The notes below the pieces were generated by a model that had not been told where the DNA came from, ran no database searches, and saw only the letters and a list, made by a program, of their open reading frames with translations. The position numbers and the translations under genes are program-made. A stretch of DNA of 64,000 nucleotides, from assembly GCF_902652985.1 (NCBI RefSeq), contig NC_047024.1, positions 35,960,001 through 36,024,000 of the forward strand. Reading direction: 5' to 3'. Source of the DNA: Pecten maximus (Eukaryota). Below, piece after piece: positions 2,374-64,000 of this stretch; position 1 is the first letter of the stretch, and each line of letters begins with the position of its first letter.

Positions 2374-2508
2374 GTAATTACAATTAACAAGGAAAAAGGA
2401 ATGACTACACGGTGTATTGAAATGAAAAGACTTACATGGATTGGAACAGAAAAAGTGTACAAGAAATGACAAATGGCACAAAGAACACTTCACATATTAT
2501 TTTTTGTT

Positions 2509-2990
2509 GTTTCTGAGCATTTTGGTAATGTATACGTAGGAACCCTTTGATCACCAGCCTTGTGTCCTAGTACTAGACCACTATGCATCCACACAAAAAA
2601 AATAAAAAGGTATGTAACTGATGTTACCTACACGATCAAACCAATGACTTTACCAACAATTTACATTATTGTCTCTTTCAACAAACAAGTTGATCTTAAT
2701 GACAAACGATACTATTTTGAATATAATGTACATAAATAATTGCCATGTTTCTGAGCATTTTGGTAATGTATACGTAGCAACCCTTTGATCATGATCACCA
2801 GCCTTGTGTCCTAGTACTAGACCACTATGCATCCACAAAAAAAAAATAAAAAGGTATGTAACTGATGTTACCTACACGATCAAACCAATGACTTTACCAA
2901 CAATTTACATTATTGTCTCTTTCAACAAACAAGTTGATCTTAATGACAAACGATACTATTTTGAATATAATGTACATAAATAATTGCCAT
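2509..2990. repeat. Near-perfect tandem duplication of about 240 bp (2509-2746, 2747-2990)
   Basis: Both copies start gtttctgagcattttggtaatg and end taaataattgccat; followed by a poly-C run at 2999-3028. Confidence 0.9.
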
Positions 2991-2997
2991 GAGTATA

Positions 2998-3028
<31 letters not shown>

Positions 3029-3824
3029 ATTTCTTCATAAACAATCATTCTGGCTCGAACTGGCCACACCACACACCAAAAGAAAAAGAAAACAAATATG
3101 TAACGTTAGAAATACATCTGTACCTGTAACTAGAACAATTAGAGCAATTACCATTACGGATTTTATCAACTTTAATGAAACTTAAATCTACACAAGCTTA
3201 CGCATATTACAAACTGAACTGTTATATTTACATTTGGTTCCATTTACATGTGTATATTATAATATTATAGGATTACTTGGAACTTCATCAGTCATTATAA
3301 CCCTTCAAACTTCCGCTAGCAGCACAATATTACAAGTGAACAATTAATTTACTTCGAGGAATTTCCAGACCAAAACTACGGTTAGCATTGTGTAGTAATA
3401 CGGGGAAACACTAGGGAATTAAGTGACAGTCATAGGTGACTTTATTTTTATTGATGTCGTACTTGTTATAAATCATCAATTTCTCAAAAATACCCAGATA
3501 TCTCTCTAGTCTGATATTCTATTGTAAGAATTCTGAGAATGATCTACGAGTACATTAATTAACCAAAATATCGCTTTCATTTTCTAATGTCTATCGATTG
3601 TAAAATGTGGCACCGAATTACAAATATCGTTATTCACAATTATTCTGATGATATAAACACGACTGAGTGTTCGACAGGACTAAATAAAGGTAAATGGGTG
3701 GGTACGACTTAATATCTTAGACAGCTGAGTCAGGAGCAACCTGTAACACCCTCAACATAAACACACAGCCAACAACAAGTTTACCCCCGATTTGCCACAA
3801 ACAATGACATTATATGTAACCTAC

Positions 3825-3867
3825 CATCAGAATTTATGAGAATTGGTGTATCGGGTGAGGAATTCAT
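3825..3867 (-). CDS. Putative first coding exon of a gene continuing off the left edge (MNSSPDTPILINSD, phase 1)
   Basis: ATG at 3867, donor G|GTAGGT at 3824, CpG-containing 5' UTR with promoter motifs just upstream; product not identifiable from 14 codons. Confidence 0.55.
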
Positions 3868-3943
3868 CGTGTCCCCAACATTTGATTCCGTCCCGTCTAC
3901 ACCTAAAACGCTGTCAAAAGTCCACACTCCTCGTCCGATTCAT

Positions 3944-4006
3944 TCTGCCATTTTCTTGACATCGAGCTGGTACAAAACAGGAAGTGATCGTACGCCGTCA
4001 CGTGAT
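3944..4006 (-). promoter_or_regulatory. Core promoter: YY1-like AAAATGGC (about 3947-3954), ETS site CAGGAAGTG (3978-3986), CLEAR/USF E-box GTCACGTGAT (3997-4006)
   Basis: Three housekeeping-promoter motifs clustered within 60 bp directly upstream of an exon with a good donor. Confidence 0.6.
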
Positions 4007-4224
4007 CATGTAATGTAGGTTCGCAGAACTTTGCTTGAGCAAATAGATGATATGAACACCGACAATACTTACGCATAACTCAGTACTATGTGCTAGAAAT
4101 AATGTTACCAATAAATCATATAAAAAGTAATATTATCCAATTAACCAATTTTATCATTTTACTACATTTTCCACATACAAACATAACTGTTAGGTGTGTT
4201 CGTTTAAAATACATAAAGGATTCC

Positions 4225-4356
4225 CAAGATTAGATGTCAGAAAATATTCATTCACGCAGATGATATAAGGAATAGTCTCCCATTTGATGTTGTAAATGCC
4301 ATATCAATTAAACAATTCGAATATAAACTTGTTGAACATTGGAAAAATCAGCCACA
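4225..4356 (+). mobile_element. CR1-type LINE 3' remnant (ORF2 C-terminus)
   Basis: Translates with a disruption as RLDVRKYSFTQ...NSLPFDVVNAISIKQFEYKLVEHWKNQP, the typical CR1 ORF2 tail. Confidence 0.65.
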
Positions 4357-4799
4357 ATAGTACTGTTTCAAAGAGAAAATCAAGCTCACGGTGAACTGAA
4401 CAATTATTTATTATTTCAATAACTTTATTACGAGCTAACAAACAAAGGATGTAAATTCTGTACATATTTTTATGTATGCTGTCAAAATAAATCTATGTAT
4501 GATCTCTGTGTCATAGTAACTAAATGATCAAGTTTTATTTATCGTAACGACAATGGTCATTATATATGGAAATTATATTTTCACAAACAATTCAATATTT
4601 TAAACTATATAAAATATCTTATATGATTAATAATATATCTTATATAATTTGGTTAAGTACTTGATCAACATTGCTCCAAGAATAAATCACAACTTGGCTA
4701 GCCATAAATCCATTACATCAATGAGAATATTCCATTTGGCTTTGATCTATTGTTGTTGAGTATATTTTCGAACATCAAAAAATACTATCTGCTTGTAAG

Positions 4800-5280
4800 A
4801 TGTTGAATGCTTTATTTCACCCAATGCGACTTTTAGATATTACACCTACTTGGTGCCATGGTGATATTGAAATGAACCCTGGTCCCAATAGATCCGATTT
4901 AAGTGTGCTTCGTTTGAATACTAGATTCTACAAATATTATGAACAACTTATTTGAACTTGATAGTATTTAACTACAGATTTTGATAGTTTGTTTTTACCT
5001 TATCGATTGGAAAATCTTCAAATAAAAAAATAAAGGTAATAAATATGAAAAGGCAAACTTTTTATAGTAATCTCGATCCAAACTTTTGATAGATCAAGGA
5101 ATTCTATATTCCTCGATTCTTTAGAAAAATGCTTAAAATCTTTATGACTAAACAAAAATATATTTGTATATATATATATATGAAATAGCTTATAGTGACC
5201 AATAATAATCCCAGGTACTTAATGATAACTTTTCTTCCATTTCTACTATTGATGATTCTAACGTAAACTTACCAGAATTT
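4800..5280 (+). mobile_element. Decayed CR1/L2-type LINE ORF2 5' part: 2A-like motif followed by the start of the AP endonuclease
   Basis: 4854-4886 encodes CHGDIEMNPGP, then NRSDLSVLRLNTR (first APE motif); further disrupted LINE-like patches follow. Confidence 0.65.
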
Positions 5281-5515
5281 GTTACGAAATGTGCGAATTA
5301 TTCCAGTCATATTGTTGTCAGCGTAGACGGCGTTTATAGAGTTGTGTCTATGCTTGGTATAAGAAAAAGCAATGGGTCACGAAAAAATAGTCATCGGATG
5401 AAGTTTATTCGTGCGTTGTGCTTTGTGAACTTTCGACAAAGTTTGGTTATAAATGATTGTTATTCAAACTCCGCCAGTATGGAATTCAGGGAAACCTACT
5501 GGCATGGTTGTCTAG

Positions 5516-6576
5516 TATGTGGCGCCGTTTTACTATTTATTCCCAGTTGGTGATATCACCTATTCAAATAGGTGATATCACCAATTCATTTTTCAAATAA
5601 GTGATATCACCCATTCGAATAGGTCATATCACTTCATGAAACGAATAGGTGATATCACCTATTCGAATAGGTGATATCACTTATAAAATTCTTAAGTGAT
5701 ATCACCTATTCGAATGAGTGATATCACCTATTCGAATAGGTGATATCACTTATAAAATTTGGAAAACTTTATGCTCCCCAATTCCATCAAGTGTAACATG
5801 TCTTATTTGGGAGCAGTCGTTTGTATTGATTCTAAAGTGATATCACTTATTCGAATAGGTGATATCACTTATGAAATTTTATAAGTGATATCACCAATTC
5901 GAATAGGTGATATCACTTTTAAAATTTCATAAGTGATATCACCTATTCGAATAGGTGATATCACTCATTCGAATAGGTGATATCACTTAATGAAACGAAT
6001 AGGTGATATCACCAATTCGAATAGGTGATATCACTTAAGAATATTTTTAAGTGATATCACCTATTCGAATAGGTGATATCACCTATTCGAATGAGTGATA
6101 TCACCTATTCGAATTGGTGATATCACCTATTCGAATTGGTGATATCACCTATTCGTTTCATTAAGTGATATCACCAATTCGAATTGGTGATATCACGTAT
6201 TTGAAAAATGAATTGGTGATATCACCTATTCGAATAGGTGATATCACTGATTGAATAGGTGATATCACCTATTCGAATAGGTGATATCACCAAATGGGAA
6301 TAAATAGTAAAACGGCGCCCCATAGGTATCACCTATTCGAATTGGTGATATCACCTATTCGTTTCAATAAGTGATATCACCTATTCGAATGAGTGATATC
6401 ACCTATTCGAATGGGTGATATCGCTTAATGAAACGAATAGGTGATATCACTCATTCGAATAGGTGATATCACTTAAAAAAGTTCTTAAGTGATATCACCT
6501 ATTCGAATAGGTGATATCACTCATTTGAATAGGTGATATCACCAAATGGGAATTAATAGTAAAACGGCGCCCCATA
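5516..6576. mobile_element. Non-autonomous DNA transposon (IS3EU-like termini) filled with palindromic 22-bp repeats
   Basis: About 30-bp TIRs tatgtggcgccgttttactatttattccca / tgggaattaatagtaaaacggcgccccata; exact 6-bp TSD GTCTAG at 5510-5515 and 6577-6582; extra right TIR at 6295-6324. Confidence 0.85.
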
Positions 6577-6771: not shown

Positions 6772-8549
6772 CATTGAGCCATTCGAAGAGCGACGGTGCG
6801 CCTGGTCGAAATCGGTCACCACAAATGATGACTTATTAGGACATTTTTTACGCTGTCAAAAATTGTGTGTGTGTGTGTTGTATCTTTGTTGTTTTGTTTG
6901 TTTTTTTAGGAGTTCGGGGGGGGGGGGGGGGGGGGGGGGGTTAAAATCTTCTCGGTACCCAACGTGCCTCTTGCAAAGCATTGTAACCTGCAAATGCCGC
7001 GATTCTCTAAACACCACGAGCTGTAGATATTGAATGATGTCAGGAATCCGCGTCATTTCATTTAAAGTGTTGAATTAAACCTGCATTGTCCAAACATATG
7101 CTGGGAGGGGGTGAGGGTTGGGTGCGCTTTTCGTGATTCAAGATAAATTGCATGTATACTTTTTAAAATTACTTGTTGAATCTATTCAGGTTGCAGTACT
7201 ACTAATTTGGGGCTAGATATCTAATTATCCAACATACGCAATACTTCCCCTCTTTATACACATTATATTTCAGCACTCTCTCCGTAAACACCAGTAATCA
7301 TTCTCGTTTTTTATATAATTGACATTTCATAGTTATCAGTCGTCAAACCTATAACATACACGAGATGAAGATCGAGATACATAGCATATCTTATTATCAT
7401 TTGTTACATGGTACGCTGAAGTGTATCGATTTCTGCTTCTGAGCGGTACACCTTAAATATATATATATTAATCAAAAAAAGTGAAACGGATGATATCGGT
7501 CGGACACTTTTAATACATTTTAAACGTGGTTGGTCGATTTCGAAAATGGTACACATTTTTTTTCAATACACATTTAATTACAAAAGTGGATAAAAGTGTA
7601 CCTGCCACCAGTGAAAATATTTCCTTTGGAGACCGCAAAATGAGGCCTATTCATTTCTAAAAAAAAACCCAACACTTCCAGTAATTTTATTTCACTATTA
7701 AATCACTAAAGTTTCACCAAAACAAAAATTTTAATCGCTGATTTATTATACTTTTAACATTATTATAATTCGGGGGGGGGGGGGGGGTTAACAACACCAT
7801 GAAGGCATTGCTCTCCGGTAGTCGCTCCTAACAACACGTCTCTGTCCATCTTGCTACGTACTGGACATCATGGTTATGTTACAGCCGCCACGTACTTGGC
7901 AGTCACTAGCAGGTTTCCGTAGGTTTGATCTCTATGGTACACACGCGGACCTACGTTTTTTTGTGACGTAGGCCCGCGCCTACCCCCATGTGGTTAAAAG
8001 GTGGAATAATAAGTGTACCGTTTCATATTAAGTTTGAATCGGGTTTCGTAAATATGATTATGTGTACGACTTAATGTATTCGGGGTGTTCAGCACACGCG
8101 ATTCTTCTCTAGCTGTACATATTCATTCTTTGCGATTTCTGATTAATATTGGCTTTTAGTCTTAACTCTCCCAAGACTTTATACAAACTACTGCCATACC
8201 TAGTAAACCTGTTTCACAATCACGCGACTCTTCATACTAGGCGTGGGTTTACGACAGAGAACAAAACTCTCCAACAACTACCTAAATGTTTTACGTGATT
8301 TTACTTGAAGGGATTCAGATTTTTTTTCTCAATATGCTAAAGTATCAATGGATTGTTGACAACATCCGTGACTTTAGAGAGATGTGGGTTGGTGAAAACT
8401 AGTTAAGTTTTGGGTCGTCACTTGGATATCACTATTTGGTTTCTGTATGCACATTGGAGTGGGATAACATGTCAGGAGGCGCAACTGGGAGGGGCAAGGG
8501 AGAAGGAAAAACGGGTGGGCAGGAACAATGTGAACGGATGGAAGCGCGA

Positions 8550-11500
8550 GGGACACGACCAGGGCCCAGGCGGACGCTCGGGACACGACCAGGCCCAGCC
8601 GGGACACGCGGGGACACGACAAGGCCCCAGTGCGGACACGCGGGACACAACCATGACCAAGGCGGACACGCGGGACACGACCAGGGCCCAGGCCGGTACG
8701 CGCGGGAGACGACCAGGCCCCAGGCGTACACAGCGGGACACGACCAGGGCCCAGGCCCGGACACGCGGGGACGCGACCAGGGCCCAGGCGGACGCGCTGT
8801 GACACGACCAGGGCCCAGCCGGACACCCGGGACACGACCAGGGGCCAGCGGACACGCGGGACACGACCAGGGCCCAGGCGGACGCGCGGGACACAACCAG
8901 GACCAAGGCGGACACGCGGGACACGACCAGGGCCCAGGCGGGACACCCGGGGACACGACCAGGCCCAGCCGGACGCGCGGGAGACGACCAGGCCCCAGGC
9001 GGACACGCGGGACACGACGAGGGCCCAGGCGGACGCGCGGGACACGACGAGGGCCCAGGCGGACACGCGGGACACGACCAGGGCCCAGGCGGACACGCGG
9101 GACACGACGAGGGCCCAGGCGGACGCGCGGGACACAACCAGGGCCCAGGCGGACACGCGGGACACGACCAGGGCCCAGGCGGACGCGCGGGACACGACGA
9201 GGGCCCAGGCGGACACGCGGGACACGACGAGGGCCCAGGCGGACACGCGGACACGACCATGGCCAGGCGGACTCGCGGGACACGACCAGGGCCCAGGCGG
9301 ACACGCGGGACACGACCAGGCCCCAGGCGGACGCGCGGGACACGACCAGGGCCCAGGCGGACGCGCGGGACACGACCCAGGGCCCAGGCGGACACGCGGG
9401 ACACGACCAGGCCCAGGCGGACGCGCGGGACACGACCAGGGCCCAGGCGACACCCGGGACACGACCAGGGCCCAGGGCGGACACGCGGGACACGACCAGG
9501 GCCCAGGGGACACGCGGGACACGACCAGGCCCCAGGCGGACGAGCGGGACACAACCAGGACCAAGGCGGACACGCGGGACACGACCAGGGCCCAGGCGGA
9601 CACCCGGGACACGACCAGGGCCCAGGCGGACGCGCGGGACACAACCAGGGCCCAGGCTGACGCGCGGGACACGACCAGCGCCAGGCCGGACACCCGGGAC
9701 ACAACCAGGACCAAGGCGGACACGCGGGACACGACCAGGGCCCAGGCGGACGCGCGGGAGACGACCAGGCCCCAGGCGGACACGCGGGACACAACGAGGG
9801 CCCAGGCGGGCGCGCGGGACACGACCAGGGCCCAGGCGGACACGCGGGACACGAACCAGGGCCCAGGCGGACGCGCGGGACACGACCAGGGCCCAGGCGG
9901 ACGCGCGGGACACAACCAGGGCCCAGGCGGACGCGCGGGACACAACCATGGGCCCAGGCGGACGCGCGGGACACAACCAGGGCCCAGGGGGACGCGCGGG
10001 ACACGACCAGGGCCCAGGCGGACACCCGGGACCACGACGAGGCCCAGGCGGACACGCGGGACACGGACCAGGGCCCAGGCGGACGCGCGGGACACGACCA
10101 GGGCCCAGGCGGACCACGCGGGACACGACCAGGGGCCAGCCGGACACGCGGGACACGACCAGGGCCCAGGCGGACGCGCGGGACACGACCCAGGCCCCAG
10201 GCGGACGCGCGGGACACGACCAGGCCCAAGCGGACGCGCGGGACACGACCAGGCCCCAGGCGGACGGCGGGACACGACCAGGGCCCAGGCGGACGAGCGG
10301 ACACGACCAGGGCCCAGGCGGACACCCGGGACCACGACCAGGGCCCAGGCGTACACCCGGGACACGACCAGGCCCCAGGCCGGACACCCGGGACACGACC
10401 AGTGCCCAGTCGGACACCCGGGACACGACCATTCCCCAGGCGTACACCCTGGACACAGCTTATGGGCCAGGCACCAGGGACGCGCGGTACACGACCAGGC
10501 CCAGGCGGACACGCGGGACACGACCAGGGGCCAGCCGGACACGCGGGACACGACCAGGGCCCAGGCGGACACCCGGGACACGACCAGGGGCCAGCCGACA
10601 CGCGGTGACACGACCAGGGCCCAGGCGGACACCCCGGGACACGTACGAGGGCCCAGGCGGACACGCGGGACACGACCAGGGCCCAGGCGGACGCGCGGGA
10701 CACGACCAGGGCCCAGGCGGACACGCGGGACACGACCAGGGGCCAGCCGGACACGCGGGAAACGACCAGGGCCCAGGCGGAAGCGCGGGACACGACCAGG
10801 CCCCAGGCGGACGCGCTGGGACACGACCAGGGCCCAGGCGGACGCGCGGACACGACAGGGGCCCCAGGCGGACACCCCGGGACATCGGACCAGGGCCCAG
10901 GCGGACACCCGGGACCGACCAGGCCCCAGGCGGACACCCGGGACACGACCATGGCCCAGGCGGACGAGCGGACACGACCAGGGGCCAGCCGGACACGCGG
11001 GGACACGACCAGGGCCCAGGGACGCGCGGGACAAGACAGGCCCCAGGCGGACGCGGGACAAGACCAGGGCCCAGCCGGACACGCGGGACGCGACCAGGCG
11101 CCAGGCGGACGCGCGGGACACGACCAGGCCCCAGGCGGACACGCGGGACGCGACCAGGCCCAAGCGGACGCGCGGGACACGGACCAGGCCCCAGGCGGAC
11201 GCGCGGGACACGACCAGGTCCCAGGCGGACGAGCGGGACACGACCAGGGCCCAGGCGGACACCGGGACACGACAGGGGCCAGGCGGACACCCGGGACACG
11301 ACCAGTGCCCAGGCGGACACCCCGGGACACTACCAGGCCCAGTGCTTACACCCGGTACACAGCGAGGGGCCAGGCGGACGCGCGGGACACGACCAGGGCC
11401 CAGGCGGACACGCGGGACACGACCAGGGCCCAGCCGGACACGCGGGACACGAACCAGGGCCCAGGCTGACACCCGGGAAACGACCAGGACCAGCCGGACA

Positions 11501-14500
11501 CCCGGGGACACGACCAGGCCCCAGGCGGACACCCGGGACACGACCAGGGACCAGGGCGGACACGCGGGACACCAACCAGGGCCCAGGCGGACACGCGGGA
11601 CACAACCAGGCCCCAGGCGGGACACGCGGGACACGACCAGGGGCCAGGCGGACACGCGGGACACGACCAGGGCCCAGGCGGACACGCGGGACACAACCAG
11701 GCCCAGGCGGACACGCGGGACACAACCAGCCCCAGGCGGGACACGCGGGACACGACCAGGGGCCAGGCGGACACGCGGGACACGACCAGGGCCCAGGCGG
11801 ACACGCGGGACACAACCAGGGCCCAGGCTGGACACGGGGACACAACCAGGGCCCAGGGCGGACACGCGGGACACAACCAGGGCCCAGGCGGACACGCGGG
11901 ACACGACCAGGGCCCAGGCGGACACGCGGGACACGACCAGGCCCCAGGCGGACACGCGGGACACAACCAGGGACCAGGCGGACGCGCGGGGACACGACCA
12001 GGGGCCCAGCCGGACACGCGGGACACGACCAGGCCCCAGGCGGACGCGCGGGACACGACCAGGGCCCAGGCGGACACGCGGGACACGACCAGGGCCCAGG
12101 CGGACGCGCGGGACACAACCAGGGCCCAGCCGGACGCGCGGGACACAACCAGGGCCCCAGGCGGACACGCGGGACACGACCAGGGCCCAGGCGGACACGC
12201 GGGACACGACCAGGACCCAGGCGGACGCGCGGGACACGACCAGGACCAGGCAGGACACCCGGGACACGACCAGGGCCAGGCCGGACACCGGGACACGACC
12301 AGGGCCAGGCGGACACCCGGGACACGACCAGGGCCCAGGCGGACACCCGGGACACGACCAGGGCCCAGGCGGACACGCGGGACACAACCAGGACAAGGCG
12401 TACACGCGGGACACGACCAGGGCCCAGGCGGACACCCGGGACACGACCAGGCCCCAGGCGGACACGCGGGACACGACCAGGGCCCAGGCGGACACCCGGG
12501 ACACGACCAGGCCCCAGGCGGACACGCGGGACACGACCAGGGCCAGGCCGGACACGCGGGACACGACCAGGCCCCAGGCGACACGCGGGACACGACCAGG
12601 GCCCATGGCGGACACCCGGGACACGACCAGGGCCCAGGCGGACACGCGGGACACAAACCAGGGCCCAGGCGGACACCCGGGACAGACCAGGCCCCAGGCG
12701 GACACGCGGGACACGACCAGGGCCCAGGCGGACACGCGGGACACGACCAGGGCCCAGCCGGACACGCGGGACACGACCAGGGACCAGGCGGACACCCGGA
12801 CACAACGAGGGGCCCGGCGGACACGCGGACGCGACCAGGGCCAGGCGGACACCCGGGACACGACGTAGGGGCCAGGCGGACACGGCGGGGACACGACCAG
12901 GGCCCAGGCGGACACCCGGGTACACGACCAGGGCCCAGGCGGACGCGCGGGACACGACCAGGGCCCAGGCGGACACCCGGGACACAACGAGGGGCCAGGC
13001 GGACACGCGGACGCGACCAGGGCCCAAGCGGACACCCGGGACACGACCAGGCCCCAGGCGGACACCCGGGACACGACCAGGCCCCAGGCGGACACGCGGG
13101 ACACGACCAGGCCCAGGCGGACACGCGGGACACGACGAGGGCCCAGGCGGACGCGCGGGACACGACCAGGGCCCAGGCGGACACGCGGGACACAAACCAG
13201 GGCCCAGGCGGACAACCGTGACACAACCAGGGACCAGCCGGACACGCGGGACGCGACCAGGGCCCAGGCGGACACGCGGGACACGACCAGGGACCAGCCG
13301 GACACCGGGACACGACCAGGCCCCAGGCGGACGCGCGGGTGACACGACCAGGGCCCAGGCGGACACGCGGACACGACGAGGGCCCAGGCGGACACGCGGG
13401 ACACGACCAGGGCCCAGGCGGACACGCGGACACGAGAGGCCCAGGCGGACACGCGGGACACGACCAGGGACCAGGCGGACGCGCGGGACACGACCAGGGC
13501 CCAGCCGGACACGCGGGACACGACCAGGCCCCAGGCGGACACCCCGGGACACGACCAGGCCCCAGGCGGACACCGGACGCGACCAGGGTCCGGGACAGCG
13601 GACACAACCAGGCCCAGCGGACACCCGGACAACCAGGCCCTCAGGGACGCGGGATCAGACCGGCCAGGTGTACACGACGGGACAAGACCAGGCCCAGGGA
13701 CCCGCACACGACAGGCCCCAGGCGACACGCGGGACACGACCAGGCCATCGGACACCAGGTGACCGACAGTGCCCAGGGACACGCAGGGACACGAGATGGG
13801 CCAGGGACCAAGACAGGGCCAGCCGACACCGGGACCGACAGGCCAGGGACGCGGGCACACCGGTGCAGCGGGGACGACACGCGAGGCCCAGGACGCGGAC
13901 AAACGAAAGGCCAGCCGGACACGCTGGACGACCAGGCTCCTGCTTGACGCTCGGGACTAGACAGGCCACTGAACGGGACACGACGAGGACCAGGCGTACA
14001 GCGGTACACGCCAGGGGATCAGACGCACACACGAGCCCAGCGGACGCAGGGACACTGACCAGGGCCAGCCGATAGCGCGGATACATAGGCCCAGGTCGAC
14101 GCGGGTACACGAACCAGGGCCCGCGGACACGCGGGCACTACAGAGTGGCTCATGCGACTGCGTCTACAAGACACAGGGGAACAGCCCGGGCGGGGCACGA
14201 CGAGGGGCCCGCGGACGCGCGGGGGCACGACCCCGGGCAGCAGCGGACACGACCCGGGGCCCCGGCGAAGGGGGAAAAGACCCGGCCCCCGGGGGAGCGC
14301 GGGGGAGACCAGGGGACGCGGACACGACCAGGGCCCGCCGGGCGGCGGGGCCCGACCAGGGCCCAGCCGGGGCACCCGGGGCACGACCAGGGAAACCCGG
14401 GGGGGGCCGGGGGGACAACCAGACCCGGCGGGCGCCCGGGACAAACCAGGACCCGCCGGGGGACGCGGGACACGACCAGGGCCCGGGGAGCGCGGGACAG

Positions 14501-17500
14501 ACCCGGCCCAGCCGGGAAACCCGGGACACGACCAGGGGCCCCGCCGGACACGCGGGGACAGACCGGGGCCAGTGCGGACACGCGGGACACGACCAGTGGA
14601 CCAGGCGGACGCGCGGGACACGACCATGGCCAGGCCGGACACGCGGGGACACGACCAGGGCCCAGCTCGGACACGCGGGACACGACCAGGGCCCAGGCGG
14701 ACACGCGGGACACGACCAGGGACCAGTGCGGACGCGCGGGACACGACCAGGGCCCAGGCGGACACGCGGGACACGACCCAGGGCCCAGCCGGACACGGCG
14801 GACACGACCAGGGCCCAGGCGGACACGCGGGACACGACCAGGGACCAGGCGGACGCGCGGGACACGACCAGGGCCAGGCCGGACACGCGGGACACGACCA
14901 GGGCCCAGGCGGACGCGCGGGACACGGACCAGGGCCCAGGCGGACGCGCGGGAACACGACCAGGGACCAGGCGGACACGCGGGACACGACCAGGGACCAG
15001 GCGGACGCGCGGGACACGACCAGGGCCAGGCCGGACACGCGGGACACGACCAGGGCCAGCCGGACACGCGGGACACGACCAGGGCCCAGGCGGACACGCG
15101 GGACACGACCAGGGACCAGGCGGACGCGCGGGACAGGACCAGGGCCAGGCGGACAGCGGGACACGACCAGGGCCCAGGCGGACGCGCGGTGACACTGACC
15201 AGGGCCCAGGCGGACGCGCGGGACACGACCCAGGACCAGGCGGACACGCGGGACACGACCAGGGACCAGGCGGACGCGCGGGACAAGACCAGGGACCAGG
15301 CGGACACGCGGGGACACGGACAAGGGCCAGGCCGGACACGCGGGGACACGACAGGGACCAGGCGGACGCGCGGGACACGACAGGGCCAGGGCCGGACACG
15401 CTGGGACACGACCAGGGACCAGGCGGACGCGCGGGACACGACCAGGGCACAGCCGGACACGCGGGACACGACAGGGCCAGGCCGGACGCGCGGGACACGA
15501 CAGGCCCAGGCGGACGCGCGGGTACACGACCAGGGACCAGGCGGACGCGCGGGACACGACCAGGGACCAGGCGGACGCGCGGGACACGACCAGGGACCAG
15601 GGCGGACGCGCGGGACACGACCAGGGACAGGCGGACGCGCGGGACACGACCAGGGACCAGGGCGGACGCGCGGGACAGACCAGGGCCCAGCCGGACACGC
15701 GGGACACGACCAGGCCCCCGGGGGACGGCGGGACAGCCAGGGCCGGCCGGACCGGGGACACGACCAGGCCCCCCGGCGGACACGCGGGACAACCAGGGAC
15801 CAGGCGGACGCGCGGGACAGACCCGGGCCAGGGGGACGGCCGGGACACGACCGGGAAAACCCGGCGGGCGGCGGGACACGACCAGGGCCGCCGGGCCGCG
15901 GGAAAAGACAGGCCCCGGCGGAACGCGGACAGACCAGGGCCAGGCGGGGCCGGGGGACAGACCAGGGCCCCGCCGGACCGCGGGAAAAACCAGGGCCCAG
16001 GGAAGCGGGACAGACCCGGGCCCGGCGGGCGGACACGAAGGCCGGGGGACGCGGGGGACACGACCGGCCAGGGGGACAGCGGAAGACGGGCCCGGGGCCG
16101 GGCACGCGGGGGCCGCCGGGCCCCCCGGGGGCGCGCGGGGAAAGAAGGGCCGGGGACGCGCGGGGCACGACCCGGGGCCAGCCGGACCACCCCGGGCAAG
16201 CCGGAGGGCCCGGAGGGGCGCCGGGACACCCAGGGCCAGGCCGACACGGCAGACAGGCCAGCCGACACCCGGGGGCCGACCGGCCCCAGGCGGGCCGCGG
16301 GACCGCGGGGGCCAGGGGGCCCCGGGACACGACCAGGGGCCCGGCGGACCCACACAACCCCCAAGCCGGGCGCGGGGAAAGACAACCAGCGGACGCGCAC
16401 AAACCAGGGCCAGGCACACGCACCACAGGGGCCACCGACGCGGGGACACACAGGCCAGGGGGAACCGGCACACGGGCCGGCGGGGGCGGACACGACCAGG
16501 CCCCGCCGGACACGCGGGACCGACCAGGGGCCCCCCGGCGGGGGACCGACCAGGGCCCGCCGGACCGGGGGGACCGACCCGGGCCCCGGGACACCGGGGC
16601 CGACCCGGGGCCCCCGCGAAAGGGCCGGGACACGACCAGGGCCCCGGCGGGAAACCGGGACACGACCCGGGGGCCCCCGCCGGGCCGGGGGAACGACCAG
16701 GGCCAGGCGGGCCCGCGGGACGCGACCAGGGCCCAGGCGGACGCGCGGACACGACCCAGGGCCCAGCCGGACGCGCGGGACACGACCAGGGCCCAGGCAG
16801 ACACCCGGGACACGACCAGGGCCCAGCCGGACGCGCGGGACACGACCAGGGCCCAGGCTGACACGCGGGACACGACCAGGGCCCAGGCAGACACGCGGGA
16901 CACGACCCAGGGACCAGGCGGACGCGCGGGAGACGACCAGGGACCAGGCGGACGCGCGGGACACGACCAGGGCCCAGGCAGACACGCGGGACACGACCAG
17001 GGCCCAGCCGGACACGCGGGACACGACCAGGGCCCAGGCGGACACGCGGGACACGACCAGGGCCCAGGCAGACACGCGGGACACGACCAGGGCCCAGCCG
17101 GTACACGCGGGACACGACCAGGGCCCAGGCGTGACACGCGGGACACGACCAGGCCCAGGCGGACACGCGGGACACGACCAGGGCCCAGGCAGACACGCGG
17201 GACACGACCAGGGCCCAGCCGGACACGCGGGACACGACCAGTGCCCAGGCTGACACTGCGGGCACACCCCCCAGGCGACCGCGGGACAGACCAGGCCCCG
17301 GCAACGCGGGACACACCCGGCCCGGCAACACCGGGGCACGACAGGGGGAGGCACCGGGGGGCACGGGGCCAGGGCCCCGGCGGGCACGGGGCAGACCCGG
17401 GGCCCCGCGACCCGGGACACGACCAGGGGCCCCGCCGGACCGGGGGACACGACCAGGGCCCCGGGGGACCGCGGACAGACCAGGGCCAGGCAAAACGCGG

Positions 17501-18020
17501 GACACGACCCGGGGCCCCGGCGGACCGCGGGGAAAAGACCGGGCCCCCGGCGGAAAGCGGGACACGACAGGGCCCGGCGGACCGCGGGACAGACCCGGGC
17601 CCACCACACGCGGGAACGACGGGGCCCAGCCGGGGAACGGGGACAACGACCAGGCCCAGCCCGGGCACGCGGGACACACACCGGCCACCACACCAGGGCC
17701 CGGGGAACGCGGGGCACGACCGGGCCCCGCGGACCGCGGGACAACCGGGGCCCCGCCGGACACGCGGGGACACGACCAGGGCCCCAGCGGACACGCGGGA
17801 CACGACAAGGGCCAGCCGGACAACGGGGACACGACCAGGCCCAGCCGGACACGCGGAAGACCGGGACCAGGCGTGAAGCGCGGGACAGACCAGGGACCAG
17901 CTGACGCGCTGGGACACTCCATGGACCATTCTGACTCGCGTGACACGGACCAGTGACAGGCGTGACACGCTGGACACGACCAGTGCCCCAGGCAGACACC
18001 CGTACACGACCAGGGCCAGT
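8550..18020. repeat. 30-bp tandem array in its G-rich form (cgcgggacacgaccagggcccaggcggaca); T->G version of the unit at 18045-18228
   Basis: Periodic 30-mer with almost no T on the + strand; noisy blocks at about 13600-14550, 15700-16730 and 17260-17830. Confidence 0.95.
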
Positions 18021-18044
18021 AGTACTCTCTGGACACTACATTTC

Positions 18045-18228
18045 CCCATGCTTACTCTATTACACTACTATTACCATTCTTACACTCGGACACGAACCAA
18101 GTTACATTCTACCCCTTTACACTACCATTTACCATTCTTACTCTCTTTACACTACCATTTCCCATTCTTACACTCTTTACACTACCATTCCCCATTCTTA
18201 CTCTCTTTACACTACCATTTCCCATTTC
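18045..18228. repeat. AT-rich, G-free form of the same 30-bp unit (ctctttacactaccatttcccattcttaca)
   Basis: Several tandem copies contiguous with the G-rich array. Confidence 0.9.
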
Positions 18229-18799: not shown

Positions 18800-19452
18800 A
18801 CTTTAATCATTGATCTGTAAACAATACTTGCTATCGTTATTTCTCATACTTCATATGTAGGTTCCCCTTCACGGATCCCTAGTTGTGTCCATCAAATTTT
18901 GAAGCTGACAGGGAAATTGAAATGGCCGACATGCAGCCATCTTGGATTTTGACAGTTGAAGTTTAAGCTTTATCCTTGAGAAGTAATTGAAGGATTTATA
19001 TGAAACTTGGTATAAATTCCTCTTCGTCCCTTTAAGTTGTGCTTATTCAGTTTTGAGTATGATTTGATAAACAAAATGGTGGACAGGAAGCCACCTTAGA
19101 TTTTGACAGTTTATACTTGTTATCATTGTAATGCTAGAAGTACTGAAGTATATTTCTCAAACTGGCTATGTAAGGTACACTCAGTTCCCTGTTATGTCCA
19201 TTTGATTTCAAGTCTGATGAGAGAAACATGATGGCTGACAGGTGGCAATATTTGAATTTATTAACGCTAGTCCTTATTTCTTTTAAAAGCTCTTCATGGG
19301 TAATCTCCGATTACATCAATTAATTTTGAAGGTTCCACTTGCTTTCAAATGATAAAAAAGGAAAGATGAGAAAAGGAGAGAAAGGTCAGTCTTACATAGA
19401 CCCAATAAATATCATTCAATGATGGGTGTCAAGATCCCTTGGGGATCTCGCG
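18800..19452. mobile_element. Degenerate interspersed repeat, possibly Helentron-like, with internal repeats and a terminal hairpin
   Basis: Recurrent aaatgg..gaca..gcagccatcttggattttgacagtt modules; hairpin agatcccttggggatct at about 19432-19448. Confidence 0.4.
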
Positions 19453-37562: not shown

Positions 37563-38771
37563 TAACTTAAGTGGTTCGTGTGTGTTTGTGTTGCAGTTTC
37601 GAATACAATATTAAACAGAATTAAAGCTTTCAATTTTGAGATTCACACATGTACATAGTAAACTAGATACTAGAGCTGTCACCGAGGGGCTGACAAGTAT
37701 ACCCCCCGCTTTTCCATGATTGGTTTGGATACTTTGTGAAGCTGCCTATTTATGGTACTATAACCAAATCAAACATGTTCTATGTTTAGGTAAGAACTAA
37801 GTGAATGCATAGCTGAACAGAATTTTGCTCGTTTTTAAAGAAAAAGGGGCATAACTCTATTAGAACTGGTAATTCGGCAAAATCTTCGCATAGAGCTAAG
37901 CCTCATAGGGTCCTCTAACTACATACCAAATTTTAGTAAAATCCATTGAAAACAATGCAAATGCATAGCCGGACAAGCTAGTAACCATTTTTTTACATAA
38001 AGGGGCATAACTCTGTAAAAAGGGTGTAGTTTTGCCGATATACAGTCTCAATAAAGTTTCTTTCGCTTATTCACTTCAATAACGATCTGATGTACATGTC
38101 ATGTTTGCAAAAGGAAAACGATAAAATGGAATTTAACCGAATAACAATTTATTAATGTTATATCAAATAACCGTTTAAATTTAACACAGATTATATGTAA
38201 AATGTAACAGAACCAGTACCTTATATTGGACATATAAAATACTGTTTGGTAGTACAACTTATGTTTTACCGACAACCACGCCATTTCTATGTGTATTAGC
38301 ACAGGAAGTTGGGCTGTGCATGTGCGTATAAAATGTTACGGTTACTGAGTTGGCGTGTTATCCGATTTAATAGACAGCACTGACCTTTACAGTCGTACTC
38401 TGAACACCTCGGCAGTAATTACGCTATTGTTTCAGCAGTTTAAAAAACAGAATTTCGATGTTGAAAAAATGTCGGCGTTAACCACAGATCGTTGGGACAC
38501 AAAAATGATACTTCGAGTTATTCGATCATTTCAAATAGGATTTTTGTTGTTAGGACCAAATTTTTACTTCGTATTATCCGAGTTTTACTAGTTTTCTTTA
38601 CTAGGACAAAGAGAGAATTCGGCCGGGACTGACGAAGTACTTCGAGTTAAGCGGGGTATTCAAGTTTTCCGAGTTCTAGTTAACGAAGTTCCACTGTATT
38701 AGAAAACCAACGTCTCCATTTTTTTCTGGGGAGTTTTGTCTTTAATTCTAAGGTGTAAATTAAGCTTGTAC

Positions 38772-57315: not shown

Positions 57316-60155
57316 CAGAATGTAGGTGGTTACTGAAGTTTGTCGATACTTGTATATGGTGGTATTGGTGTGAGTATATGGTGGTATTGGTGTGAGTGAC
57401 ATGAGAGTGTAGGTCGTTACTGAAGTTTGTCGATACTTGTATATGGTGGTATTGGTGTGAGTATATGGTGGTATTGGTGTGAGTATATGGTGGTATTGGT
57501 GTGAGTATATGGTGGTTTTGGTGTGAGTATATGGTGGTATTGGTGTGAGTGACATGAGAGTGTAGGTGGTTACTGAAGTTTGTCGATACTTGTATATGGT
57601 GGTATTGGTGTGAGTATATGGTGGTATTGGTGTGAGTATATGGTGGTTTTGGTGTGAGTATATGGTGGTATTGGTGTGAGTGACATGAGAGTGTAGGTGG
57701 TTACTGAAGTTTGTCGATACTTGTATATGGTGGTATTGGTGTGAGTGACATGAGAGTGTAGGTGGTTACTGAAGTTTGTCGATACTTGTATATGGTGGTA
57801 TTGGTGTGAGTGACATGAGAGTGTAGGTGGTTACTGAAGTTTGTCGATACATGTATATGGTGGTATTGGTGTGAGTATATGGTGGTATTGGTGTGAGTAT
57901 ATGGTGGTATTGGTGTGAGTATATGGTGGTATTGGTGTGAGTGACATAATAGTGTAGGTGGTTACTGAAGTTTGTCGATACTTGTATATGGTGGTATTGG
58001 TGTGAGTATATGGTGGTATTGGTGTGAGTATATGGTGGTATTGGTGTGAGTATATGGTGGTATTGGTGTGAGTATATGGTGGTATTGGTGTGAGTGACAT
58101 GAGAGTGTTGGTGGTTACTGAAGTTTGTCGATACTTGTATATGGTGGTATTGGTGTGAGTATATGGTGGTATTGGTGTGAGTATATGGTGGTATTGGTGT
58201 GAGTATATGGTGGTATTGGTGTGAGTATATGGTGGTATTGGTGTGAGTATATGGTGGTATTGGTGTGAGTATATGGTGGTATTGGTGTGAGTATATGGTG
58301 GTATTGGTGTGAGTGACATGAGAGTGTTGGTGGTTACTGAAGTTTGTCGATACTTGTATATGGTGGTATTGGTGTGAGTATATGGTGGTATTGGTGTGAG
58401 TATATGGTGGTATTGGTGTGAGTATATGGTGGTATTGGTGTGAGTATATGGTGGTATTGGTGTGAGTATATGGTGGTATTGGTGTGAGTGACATGAGAGT
58501 GTTGGTGGTTACTGAAGTTTGTCGATACTTGTATATGGTGGTATTGGTGTGAGTATATGGTGGTATTGGTGTGAGTATATGGTGGTATTGGTGTGAGTGA
58601 CATGAGAGTGTTGGTGGTTACTGAAGTTTGTCGATACTTGTATATGGTGGTATATGGGGCATTGTTGATGTAGTATATGGTGGTATTGGTGTGAGATATA
58701 TGGTGGTATTGGTGGTGAGTGACATGAGAGTGTTGGTGGTTACTGAAGTTTGTCGATACTTGTATATGGTGGTATTGGTGTGAGTAATGGTGAGAGTAGG
58801 TAGGTGGTGGGTTAGGACTGAGAGTGTGGTTCTGGTTCGATACTTGTATATGGTGGTATTGGTGTGAGTGACATAATGTGGTAGGTGGTTACTGAAGTTT
58901 GTCGGATGACATTGAGATGGTTGGGTATGGTGTCGCGTGATATGGTGGTGATTGGTTGTGAGGACATGAGAGTGTAGGTGGTTACTGAAGTGTCGGTACT
59001 GATATGGTGGTATTGGGTGGTATATAGGCCGATGTGACTTGGAGGGTGAGTATGGGTGGTTAGGTGGGTCTGGTGAGGTAGAGGGGTGGGAGGTGGTCTT
59101 GTGGGGAGTGGGGTGTATATGGTGGCTCTTGTGTGAGGTAATGGTGTGAGTGACATAAGAATGTAGGTGGTTACTGAAGTTTGTCGATACTTGTATACGG
59201 TGGTATTGGTGTGAGTATATGGTGGTATTGGTGTGAGTGACATAAGAATGTAGGTGGTTACTGAAGTTTGTCGATACTTGTATATGGTGGTATTGGTGTG
59301 AGTATATGGTGGTATTGGTGTGAGTGACATAAGAGTGTTGGTGGTTACTGAAGTTTGTCGATACTTGTATATGGTGGTATTGGTGTGAGTATATGGTGGT
59401 ATTGGTGTGAGTGACATAAGAGTGTTGGTGGTTACTGAAGTTTGTCGATACTTGTATATGGTGGTATTGGTGTGAGTGACATAAGAGTGTTGGTGGTTAC
59501 TGAAGTTTGTCGATACTTGTATATGGTGGTATTGGTGTGAGTATATGGTGGTATTGGTGTGAGTATATGGTGGTATTGGTGTGAGTATATGGTGGTATTG
59601 GTGTGAGTGACATAAGAGTGTTGGTGGTTACTGAAGTTTGTCGATACTTGTATATGGTGGTATTGGTGTGAGTGACATGAGAGTGTAGGTGGTTACTGAA
59701 GTTTGTCGATACTTGTATATGGTGGTATTGGTGTGAGTATATGGTGGTATTGGTGTGAGTGACATGAGAGTGTAGGTCGTTACTGAAGTTTGTCGATACT
59801 TGTATATGGTGGTATTGGTGTGAGTATATGGTGGTATTGGTGTGAGTGACATGAGAGTGTAGGTCGTTACTGAAGTTTGTTGATACTTGTATATGGTGGT
59901 ATTGGTGTGAGTGACATGAGAGTGTAGGTCGTTACTGAAGTTTGTCGATACTTGTATATGGTGGTATTGGTGTGAGTGACATGAGAGTGTAGGTCGTTAC
60001 TGAAGTTTGTCAATACTTGTATATGGTGGTATTGGTGTGAGTATATGGTGGTATTGGTGTGAGTATATGGTGGTATTGGTGTGAGTGACATGAGAGTGTA
60101 GGTGGTTACTGAAGTTTGTCGATACTTGTATATGGTGGTATTGGTGTCAGTGACA
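57316..60155. repeat. Compound minisatellite: about 65-bp unit with a variable number of nested 22-bp units (gagtatatggtggtattggtgt)
   Basis: Direct inspection; noisy block at about 58650-59150. Confidence 0.95.
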
Positions 60156-60842
60156 TTCAATAAAGGACCTACATATCTACCCCAGGCTAAGCCATATTCA
60201 AATCATGAAATTTATAATGAAAAGATACAGTATTTTCTAAATAATATGTAGATTGTTGTTCATAGCTACGATAGTATGTTCTGGCCCGTGATAGCCACAG
60301 ATTAAACTAATGCTTTATTCATGAGTATTAAAGCACCAAGTCTCAGACCGTTGTGTATTGACAGATATTTAAAACCTTTACGGCATCAGACAGATTTGTT
60401 TATTTATTATCAGCAAAGTTTGTACAGGTTACGGCATGTGTAATGTACGTGTTGTGTCAAAAGAATATGTAATGAATTAGAAACATTTTACTTTGTAATT
60501 AATTTCTGTTGACATGCCAGCAGTGTACTTGTCTTTTGTTAGGTATCCGGATATCCACCAAAGATTATCATAAGATAGCAATTGCACATGGTATATTAGG
60601 AACTTAATGAATACAGTTTACATAACTTCATAGGAATTGTGTAGACCTAAAAACTGTTTGTTTAGCCAGCCTATAATATAATAATAAGAATTTATTACCA
60701 TATTTGTCCAGATAAGACGTAGAGCACATTACACTTTATCAAACCATATACGTGAAATAAAGGTCGGAAAAGAAAAACATAATATATTCTTAAGAAACAC
60801 AAGAATATGATGTACATAGCAAGTTGCTTCTCTGTGACAGAG

Positions 60843-61153
60843 GACCGTGATAGCTCAGGCAGGAGAGCTCTGGCCACGTAGCCTCAGGCGAAGGTCCGAG
60901 GTGTGTGGCTTGGCACTCCCTACCCGTGGCAATTTGTGTTTCTCGGGAAGCTGAAGATCAGTCTCTGTTGTCGTTGTTGTGTACTTGGGCATTTAAAACA
61001 CAGTACTCTTTACCCTGATTGTTCTGGGTGACATACGAGTGGCCCTCAGTATGTTGTTCTGTGAGGTAGCCACCAACTACTACAAGGAGACCCCACCTCA
61101 AAATGACCCTGGTTGTTCACGGGGTGATAAACCCAACAAACAAAACAAACAAA
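60843..61153 (+). mobile_element. tRNA-derived SINE with a CORE-like central domain
   Basis: A-box-like gatagctcaggcagg, core-like tgttgtgtacttgggca...ctttaccct, 3' aaatgaccctggttgtt and (caaa)n tail. Confidence 0.65.
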
Positions 61154-61464
61154 TTCTCTGCGACATCTGTTTACAAAGGGTTATCATAGTGCCTTGAGAG
61201 ATTGGTGAATTAAGTAACCATTTTATAGACTCAAAATTAAATAGTGCACATACTTTCATTCCCAGAAAAATGACAGTGGTGCACTTATAGAGACATGTGT
61301 ACTAGGACTAATATGGTATTTTATAGCGCATGCTTGACTTCAGTAAATATACTAATTTTAGCCACAATCTTATTTTAGCGATTTTTGCACTTAAAACAAT
61401 TTGCTAATTGATGATTGCGCTAATGACACTTAATTTATATGGTTTTACCCATTCATATTGCGCA

Positions 61465-63030
61465 ATTATACTACATTAACCTCTTATACGCCATATCAAT
61501 ATAATTACATTATACCTCTCCGGATAACAGCAGATAAAGGAGGACACAGTAGACCGACAGAGACAAGAGACAACATGAGACCGCGGATAACATCAGAGCA
61601 AGATACGTACAGTATACCACCCAGCAAGAGACGTACAGTATACCACCAGAGCAAGATAAGCAGGTAACCACCATGCAAGAGACGACAGGAGACCACCAGA
61701 GCAGGAGACGACAGGAGACCACCAGAGCAAGAGACGACAGGAGACCGCCAGAGCAAGAGACGACAGGAGACCACCAGAGCAAGAGACGACAGGAGACCAC
61801 CAGAGCAAGAGACGACAGGAGACCACCAGAGCAAGAGACGACAGGAGACCACCAGAGCAAGAGACGACAGTGAGACCACCAGAGCAAGAGACGACAGGAG
61901 ACCACCAGAGCAAGAGACCACAGGAGACCACCAGAGCAAGAGACGACAGGAGACCGCGGAGACCAGCAGAGCAAGAGACGACAGGAGACCACCAGAGCAA
62001 GAGACGACAGGAGGACAGCGGAGACCAGCAAGAGACGACAGGAGACCGCGGAGACCAGCAGAGCAAGAGACGACAGGAGACCGCGGAGACCAGCAGAGCA
62101 AGAGACGACAGGAGACAGCGGAGACCACCAGAGCAGGAGACGACAGGAGACCACCAGAGCAAGAGACGACAGGAGACCGCCAGAGCAAGAGACGACAGGA
62201 TACCACCAGAGCAAGAGACGATCAGGAGACCCACCAGAGCAAGATGACGGAAGGAGACCACCAGAGCAAGAGACGACAGGAGACCACAGAGCAAGAGACG
62301 ACAGGAGACCACCAGAGCAAGAGACGACAGGAGACCACCAGAGCAAGAGACCACAGGAGACCACCAGAGCAAGAGACGACAGGAGACCTGCGGAGACCAG
62401 CAGAGCAAGAGACGACAGGAGACCACCAGAGCAAGAGACGACAGGAGACCCCCAGAGCAAGAGACGACAGGAGACCACCAGAGCAAGAGACGACAGGAGA
62501 CCACCAGAGCAAGAGACGACAGGAGACCACCAGAGCAAGAGACCACAGGAGACCACCAGAGCAAGAGACGACAGGAGACCACCAGAGCATAGAGACGACA
62601 GGAGACCACCAGAGCAAGAGACGACAGGAGACCGCGGAGACCACCAGAGCAAGAGACAGGAGACCACCAGAGCAAGGACGACAGGAGACACCCAGAGCAA
62701 TGAGACGACAAGACCCCCAGAGCAAGAGGACGACAGGAGACCACCAGAGCAAGAGACGACAGGAGACCCCCCAGAGCAAAGTACACCAGAAGGACTAAGT
62801 GAGACCACCAGATGCAATGAGACTACAGTATACCACCCAGATCAATATAGCTTACATGTATTACCACCATTATTCAATATTTCCTACATTATACCACCAT
62901 ATGCAATAACTACATTATACCACCATATTCAATCTACTACATTATACACCATAGTCAATGATACCACATTTATACCACCATATCAATATACTACATTATA
63001 CCACCATATCAATATACTACATTATACCTC
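61465..63030. repeat. 26-bp tandem array: edges ccaccatatcaatatactacattata, centre (61680-62775) ccaccagagcaagagacgacaggaga (T->G form)
   Basis: Direct inspection; mixed units at both transitions. Confidence 0.93.
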
Positions 63031-63185
63031 TTCCTTCACACAGTTAATGGTTGATTTTGGATTTGTTGTACCATTATCAGAGATGGGTTAACTAAGTCAT
63101 TTCTCAATGATGTTCTTCACTTGGTGTTGAATATGTAAAATATATTGAAATTGTATATGTAATCTATCTTTTTTTACACATATAG

Positions 63186-63275
63186 GTGTCAGCTAGATGA
63201 GGTGACAAAGGAAAAGAACTCCTTTCATCTACAGTTCAACAAGAGTAACCAAACTGCAGCTGACCTTCAGGACAG
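63186..63275 (+). CDS. Intermediate filament exon, coil 1B (RCQLDEVTKEKNSFHLQFNKSNQTAADLQDR)
   Basis: Acceptor tttttacacatatag, donor AG|GTATTG, 90 nt phase 2-2; aligns by eye to lamin RKTLDSVAKERARLQLEL; gene continues beyond the window. Confidence 0.88.
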
Positions 63276-64000
63276 GTATTGAATGTCAATCGGATGGAAA
63301 CAAATTAGATGCCACTATTAAGAATAAAATAGATTAATCATTTGGAGCTTTTTCATGCTGCGCATAATCAATTTGGTGAATCAGCCCTAAAATCATTCAT
63401 TTCATATTCATGTCATACACAGTTTACATCATACAGGACCATTTTTCCACTTGGATCTTCAGGCTCGTCTGGTAATGTGACCTAACTATGTATGGTAGCA
63501 GTCATTGCGGTTGATGACTTTTGCCCGTTCTCGTAGAGAACACAGGACCACGCCTGGCCACAACCTGCTCTTTCAATTCCAATCATGTATTTGTTCATTG
63601 TCTATCAGCTCTAAAAAAAAAAATAATACTTAACCCATTTTCCTTAACCAGGACAACATTTCCCTTAATAATGGTAATTGTATAATTATATGCCGCAGCT
63701 AAGACAGCCCTAAGTGCTATTTGTTTGATTTTGTTGACTTTGTATTATTTAGTATGTTAGAATAGTTTATAATGTTAATACCTAGTGATTTGTTTCATAA
63801 TACAGTTGTCAGTCTTTAAACTGTGTTTTTGATTGTTTATGAAATTTAAAGGAAAAAAAGCTCTGTTCATTGGTTGTAGGGATGACCAGAATTTGTCCCG
63901 AGAAAAATGTTTGTCTCAAGTAAAATGACCTCCCTTTTTGTCCCTAATAGAATTACCTCCCTTTTTGTCCCTAATAGAGTTACCTCCCTTTTCAACAATA

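Follow-up and report, generated by a model that had tools for sequence, protein, structure and literature searches.

Conversion of T to G inside a G-free 26-bp tandem array: an assembly artefact of probable long-read origin

The wholesale rewriting of repeats during long-read base calling has been described for nanopore data. Tan et al. 2022 (PMC9414165) describe telomeric arrays that are rewritten as a whole beside correct units and that can enter an assembly, the products they report being strand-specific and altered in several letters (TTAAAA; CTTCTT, CCCTGG) and not seen in HiFi reads. A Drosophila nanopore assembly (bioRxiv 10.64898/2026.07.13.738322) provides a false satellite which was exposed by another assembly and by short reads; there the error was strand-skewed and involved changes in unit length, and nanopore is called uniquely prone to satellite miscalls. 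As for single substitutions, Dohm et al. 2020 (PMC7671305) report A-C and G-T exchanges to be slightly elevated in PacBio reads and transitions to be elevated in nanopore reads.

The locus examined here resembles the first two cases in that a whole array has been rewritten beside correct units and is exposed by a second assembled copy and by short reads. It differs in that the change is a single-letter, context-independent T to G (A to C on the other strand) which affects complex 26-mers and 30-mers as well as the telomeric hexamer, and in that the letter pair appears to be of the PacBio type. The two letter pairs of the PacBio bias, which are mutual complements, are the same as those observed here, but that bias is reported as a slight scattered excess in E. 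coli whereas in the present case the switch is almost total, extends over kilobases and is linked to the absence of a base. The variant hexamer found in this assembly is absent from the main text of PMC9414165. No description of a T to G or A to C switch caused by base absence was found in the literature covered, which leaves most subscription papers and vendor notes outside.

Structure of the 26-mer array

At 61465-63026 of the window (the whole 64,000-nucleotide stretch of DNA that was analysed) a 26-bp unit is repeated in tandem, together with variant monomers of 9 and 21 bp. A first-pass annotation had described a T to G conversion in this array with T-form units on both sides, and the conversion is evident when every unit is aligned. 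Of the 335 T sites of the core (61690-62770), 329 read G, three read T, three read C and none reads A, so that the substitution is confined to the G/T pair. A sites were kept as A in 433 of 443 cases (98%) and C sites as C in 282 of 290 (97%); the G-form core is therefore fairly clean, with about 3% noise.

The array can be divided, on the plus strand, into five parts. The left edge (61465-61514) is noisy and in T form, with 13 of 13 aligned T sites reading T, and is collinear with the start of a T-form array in contig C1479, described below. In the left mixed zone (61515-61692) both T and G occur at T sites together with G/T doublets, and one to four T are retained per unit. The G-form core proper, with its 9-bp and 21-bp variant monomers, occupies 61693-62766 and is followed by a right mixed zone (62767-62863) whose units show T to G counts at T sites of 1/3, 2/5, 3/5 and 6/2. 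The right edge (62864-63026) is in T form according to the per-unit alignment and to short-read contigs, and its final two units are exact. Both edges are in pure T form, within limits slightly different from those of the first-pass annotation (62880-63030 and about 61470-61520), and a zone of mixed T and G separates each edge from the core. Its further statement that the variant 9-bp insert maps to the core holds as a near match; the left-edge copy has one base missing before it and is not the exact 14-mer that was quoted.

Exact copies tell the same story. The T-form 26-mer has two exact copies in the window, at 62975-63000 and 63001-63026, and its T to G image is present in 16 exact copies within 61719-62766. 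When 512 combinations of letter map and strand were examined for their ability to place 139 edge 12-mers in the core, the four plus-strand maps with T to G and with A and C kept placed 72-73 of them. The identity map placed none of the 139 and the best remaining map only 14. Since only maps with T to G place the edge 12-mers in number, the relation between edge and core is not due to chance.

The letters inserted in the mixed edges are also informative. In 17 of 21 cases the inserted letter is a T or G beside a T site (a G adjoining a T site in 3 of 3 cases at 61590-61692, and a T or G adjoining one in 14 of 18 at 62767-62974). Such doublets are as expected if both letters were written at one position, and they fit disagreeing reads or disagreeing signal states. 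Overall the edges contain 21 insertions, mostly these doublets, and 23 deletions; as insertions do not outnumber deletions, the edge noise does not point to any platform.

Outside the array, at about 61040-61145, lies a short element of very high copy number (summed contig depth up to 10^5-10^6) with A-rich loose ends to its right; in appearance it resembles a SINE.

The same locus in T form

An unplaced 14,965-bp contig of the same assembly (G000), C1479, carries both unique flanks of the window array. The left flank (60201-61410) is identical to it in 1202 of 1211 alignment columns (99.3%) and the right flank (63027-63926) in 888 of 905 (98.1%), and the two sequences remain collinear for about 6 kb further beyond the end of the window at 97-99%. 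Between these flanks the array of C1479 is in T form over 4,595 bases and includes 10 G, with G-free runs of up to 763 bp; the unit had been called natively G-free on the plus strand, which is almost but not wholly the case. The exact G unit has 16 copies in G000, all at the window locus, and the exact T unit has 54, two in the window and 52 in C1479. With G changed to T, 29 of the 42 monomers of the window core, belonging to 7 of its 19 types, have an exact counterpart among the C1479 monomers; without this change none has. The appearance of the remaining 12 types suggests fused units or noise from indels and substitutions. The parallel data therefore contain the same locus in another form.

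Approximately 0.6-2% of flank sites differ between C1479 and the window, and the arrays are 4.6 kb and 1.56 kb long. Judged from the sequences, C1479 is probably the other haplotype rather than the same molecule, and it would therefore show the form of the array at this locus and not the form of the window's own molecule. Within C1479, at about 1800-6390 (L011), a 1,178-bp block is repeated about 3.9 times, three times identically at the level of monomers, and is either a higher-order repeat or an assembly duplication. At 12923-14111 (L012) about 1.2 kb are without a counterpart in the C10 scaffold, part of this segment matching window positions 38023-38444 in inverted orientation; it is probably an insertion polymorphism.

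Short-read contigs were then considered. Five runs from three studies contain 0.47-0.61 of the words of 60200-64000, and four of them were examined, X3 (from the sample of X1) being left out. X1 and X4 come from one sample, which may be the source sample of the assembly, hence independent support amounts to two studies. In four of four runs (three samples) contigs lead from T-form units into the right flank, starting at 62999-63003 with 0-1 other letters, and in four of four runs the loose ends of contigs join the left flank to T-form sequence. The 9-bp insert is in T form in contigs of X2 and X5. Word depth on T-unit contigs reaches 385-1627 as against 11-47 on the flank, individual comparisons being 1627 versus 15 in X4, 563 versus 45 in X2 and 368 versus 32 in X5. 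As the 31-mers of these T units have about one copy in the window and about 24 in C1479, this depth indicates that the T form predominates in these samples. In the X1/X4 sample the array may exceed both assembled versions in length. Accurate short reads thus speak for the T form, through the junctions at the borders and through depth, with no contig bridging the core. The G-form or mixed stretches 62715-62867 and 61452-61600 have no contig depth in any of the four runs, contigs being evidence of presence and not of absence; G-form 31-mers within these stretches have 13-16 copies in the window. The best run contains 0.61 of the sampled words of 60200-64000 and the flanks make up 0.66 of the distinct 31-mers, two figures that are compatible with each other and no more than that.

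Because the C1479 copy is in T form throughout and short reads join both flanks to T, the G-form core is an assembly artefact and not a real genomic feature (probability about 0.96), as the first-pass annotation had proposed. The locus is an ordinary G-free 26-bp minisatellite whose middle was very probably miscalled, the error probably having arisen in long reads.

If the G form were instead a real allele, mutation and concerted evolution would have turned T into G in the core of one haplotype, and C1479 would represent the haplotype left unchanged. The haplotype-like appearance of C1479, the fairly clean core with its 3% noise and the lack of any contig across the core would all suit such an allele. 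It would nevertheless have needed the same rare transversion at eight sites per unit and in seven variant monomer types without any other change, and the same change again in unrelated 30-mer and telomere repeats (see below), and mutation does not leave a pattern such as the T/G doublets at the switch. The mixed spectrum of changes, fixed one site at a time, and the variants private to each sub-array that concerted evolution would leave were not observed; all T sites change in one direction and seven variant monomer types are shared with the T-form array. A real allele is very improbable, and the least credible of the explanations considered.

A modified base in the cores of native arrays, read as G (or C) by a single-molecule platform and as T in amplified short reads, would likewise leave short reads with T and a long-read consensus with G. 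No modification is known to template an exchange of T for G. The same array is in T form in C1479 of the same assembly, the trigger follows the absence of a letter and not a motif, and a possible spill-over into unique sequence at 8471-8550 fits a memory of the caller. A modified base is accordingly very improbable, if marginally less so than a real allele.

Other arrays and the limits of the rule

The artefact at 61465-63026 is not the only converted array in the window. A second one, of a 30-bp unit and about 9.5 kb long, lies at 8550-18226 on the plus strand; 105 of its 115 edge 12-mers are found in its core after T to G and none as they stand. It is in G form up to about 18017 and in T form at its right end only. 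The unique sequence immediately to its left (8471-8550) is poor in T and rich in G (6 T, 37 G), only 2 of 24,006 sampled 80-bp pieces being as extreme, and going by this composition it may be an overshoot of the G form into the flank. A second copy of the flanks or unit of the 30-mer array was not found and it has no twin contig. That two converted arrays occur within 45 kb may reflect the richness of the window in arrays or the sharing of reads. Near the right end of the 30-mer array, at about 18840-19260, the window contains a copy of a dispersed repeat whose internal periodicity is close to 155 bp and which is about 70% identical to over 100 places in G000.

Arrays using all four bases had been called unaffected, and this is borne out by eight such arrays in the window, including the three that had been named, in which no comparable drift of G/(G+T) or C/(A+C) is seen. 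At 57352-60064 a C-poor 22-mer array, in which C-containing units are interspersed and the longest C-free run is 182 bp, is unconverted; being a near miss, it acts as a control for the rule.

Since one strand of the telomere repeat lacks G, a T to G rule predicts one specific variant of it. The predicted variant is represented in G000 by 425 triplets, the canonical repeat by 3113, another one-base variant taken as a control by 18 and the reversed pattern by 3. The predicted change is therefore present inside telomere-type arrays, and the excess of the A to C variant over the control variant (425 versus 18) fits a substitution confined to the A/C pair. The expectation of further such loci is borne out as well, in telomere-type arrays of at least five other contigs or scaffolds. 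Five telomere loci were examined, chosen for the variant among the matches listed, and they consequently give no rate of conversion. Together with the sampled DNA they yielded 15 telomere-type pieces. Four of these, 793-2630 bp long, are canonical at both ends and carry the one-letter variant inside, where doublets occur now and then; the ten that lack a variant run do not exceed 532 bp, and one is a noisy contig end. The four converted arrays are interstitial and lie at about 22500-25100 of C3707 (L136), 186700-188250 of C3006 (L134), 1870-2710 of C2056 (L132) and 42330300-42331100 of C12 (L138), the core in C3707 being more than 2 kb of nearly pure variant.

In all four, the longer of the two correct stretches lies towards the 5' end on the C-free strand (414/122, 800/211, 156/84 and 423/229 bp). 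The same holds for the arrays of the window, with 162/49 bp of pure T for the 26-mer and about 200 bp against none for the 30-mer. This asymmetry hints at a lag that depends on direction. C509 was left out of the comparison as the gap rule split it into three pieces; its variant-bearing piece taken alone runs the opposite way (23 versus 173), and in C509 taken whole the first variant run occurs about 1.1 kb into the array. Positions 3200-5068 of L131, from this contig, are a contig end of telomere type; there the A of the unit is frequently missing or replaced by C, and the sequence terminates in noise of G and T only.

The deterministic form of the rule, that long G-free tracts switch, does not survive. 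In C1479 the array, whose G-free runs reach 763 bp, has stayed unconverted along 4.6 kb, and a noisy G-poor array at 62-3889 of L113 (from C600) is unconverted over 3.8 kb with 81 G (2% G); unconverted arrays of such length in the same assembly had been named beforehand as weakening the rule. In addition, 987,873 bases outside the window (0.1% of G000) were sampled from the window's neighbours, both ends of the 19 largest scaffolds, interior pieces of C1-C4 and 22 smaller contigs. Among these bases there were 12 G-poor or C-poor tracts of at least 200 bp and no T-poor or A-poor tract of that length. These observations indicate a switch that is occasional and length-dependent and that is better stated for both strands, T to G on the G-free strand being A to C on the C-free strand.

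Proposed origin of the error and its consequences

Given that the G-form core is an artefact, drift of a long-read caller on a strand lacking one base is its likely mechanism, as far as this can be read from consensus sequence. The caller would drift and read T as G once the strand has been without G for a few hundred bases, and on the complementary C-free strand the matching error would be A to C. A caller may drift because an adaptive signal model gives the class of the absent base to its neighbour. G and T, and likewise A and C, are neighbours in the dye or amplitude scheme of the instrument. PacBio continuous long reads appear to be the best fit for the source of the error because G-T and A-C are the substitution pairs elevated on PacBio.

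Since both strands' errors would write the same letter, a consensus would not cancel them. Each read would be correct on entering the array and would switch after a lag; the ends would then be covered by both kinds of read, giving mixed zones and doublets, and the core by switched reads only. Switched and unswitched reads would differ at 31% of sites, and an assembler would keep them apart. T-form short reads, being 31% different, would for their part not map to the G core, which would stay unpolished. The escape of long G-poor arrays requires the additional assumption that some reads stay unswitched or were polished.

An artefact of another origin, such as strand-specific nanopore miscalling of repeats or a step of consensus or polishing, with no drift of dye or amplitude on two strands, is unlikely though far less remote than a real allele or a modified base. 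G000 may rest on nanopore data, and the wholesale rewriting of repeats by nanopore callers is well documented (PMC9414165; bioRxiv 10.64898/2026.07.13.738322). The nanopore products reported in PMC9414165, however, change several letters and differ by strand and nanopore substitutions are described as mainly transitions (PMC7671305), whereas here one letter is changed in every context of the 26-mer, the 30-mer and the hexamer. A multi-letter product of the Tan et al. 2022 type was looked for in the 26-mer and is not what is found, as the one-letter map applies at all eight T contexts with A and C intact.

Caller drift may bear on published telomere sequences. TTCGGG, TTTCGGG and CCCGAAA, listed as telomere variants in PacBio-based assemblies, are the exact product of T to G on the G-free telomere strand. 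In a PacBio-based assembly (PMC7653826) a single tapeworm chromosome is described as having the predicted hexamer or heptamer as its dominant telomere unit. A plant assembly from PacBio CLR reads lists it as a variant (PMC9883528), and elsewhere it is among the standard words used to search for telomeres (PMC11208153, PMC12239627); in the passages concerned these four sources list such words as variants or search k-mers and not as errors. The hexamer is also reported among interspersed human telomere variants in HiFi reads (PMC9845338), so that its occurrence does not by itself identify the error. Certain of the published telomere variants may nevertheless have arisen in this way. The wider proposal is of a general and so far undescribed error of older long-read assemblies, in which any array lacking G on one strand (C on the other) can be rewritten T to G or A to C on both strands and survives consensus and polishing, and which would explain long homogeneous blocks of TTCGGG or TTTCGGG at telomeres and GC-rich T-free 'satellites' that have been taken for biology in other genomes; we put its chances at somewhat below even.

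The locus itself carries no new biology and its value is that of a quality warning and a diagnostic. The error is letter-perfect, resembles a clean GC-rich satellite and inflates local GC and the number of CpG sites. The case offers a simple filter, namely a T-free or A-free array with its G to T image at the border, as well as a cheap test for published telomere variants. The error also takes away most minus-strand stop codons. The three minus-strand frames contain 0, 0 and 1 stop codons in the G form compared with 36, 37 and 42 in the T form, and the converted sequence includes stop-free stretches of 409 and 443 codons, which are long because one letter is missing.
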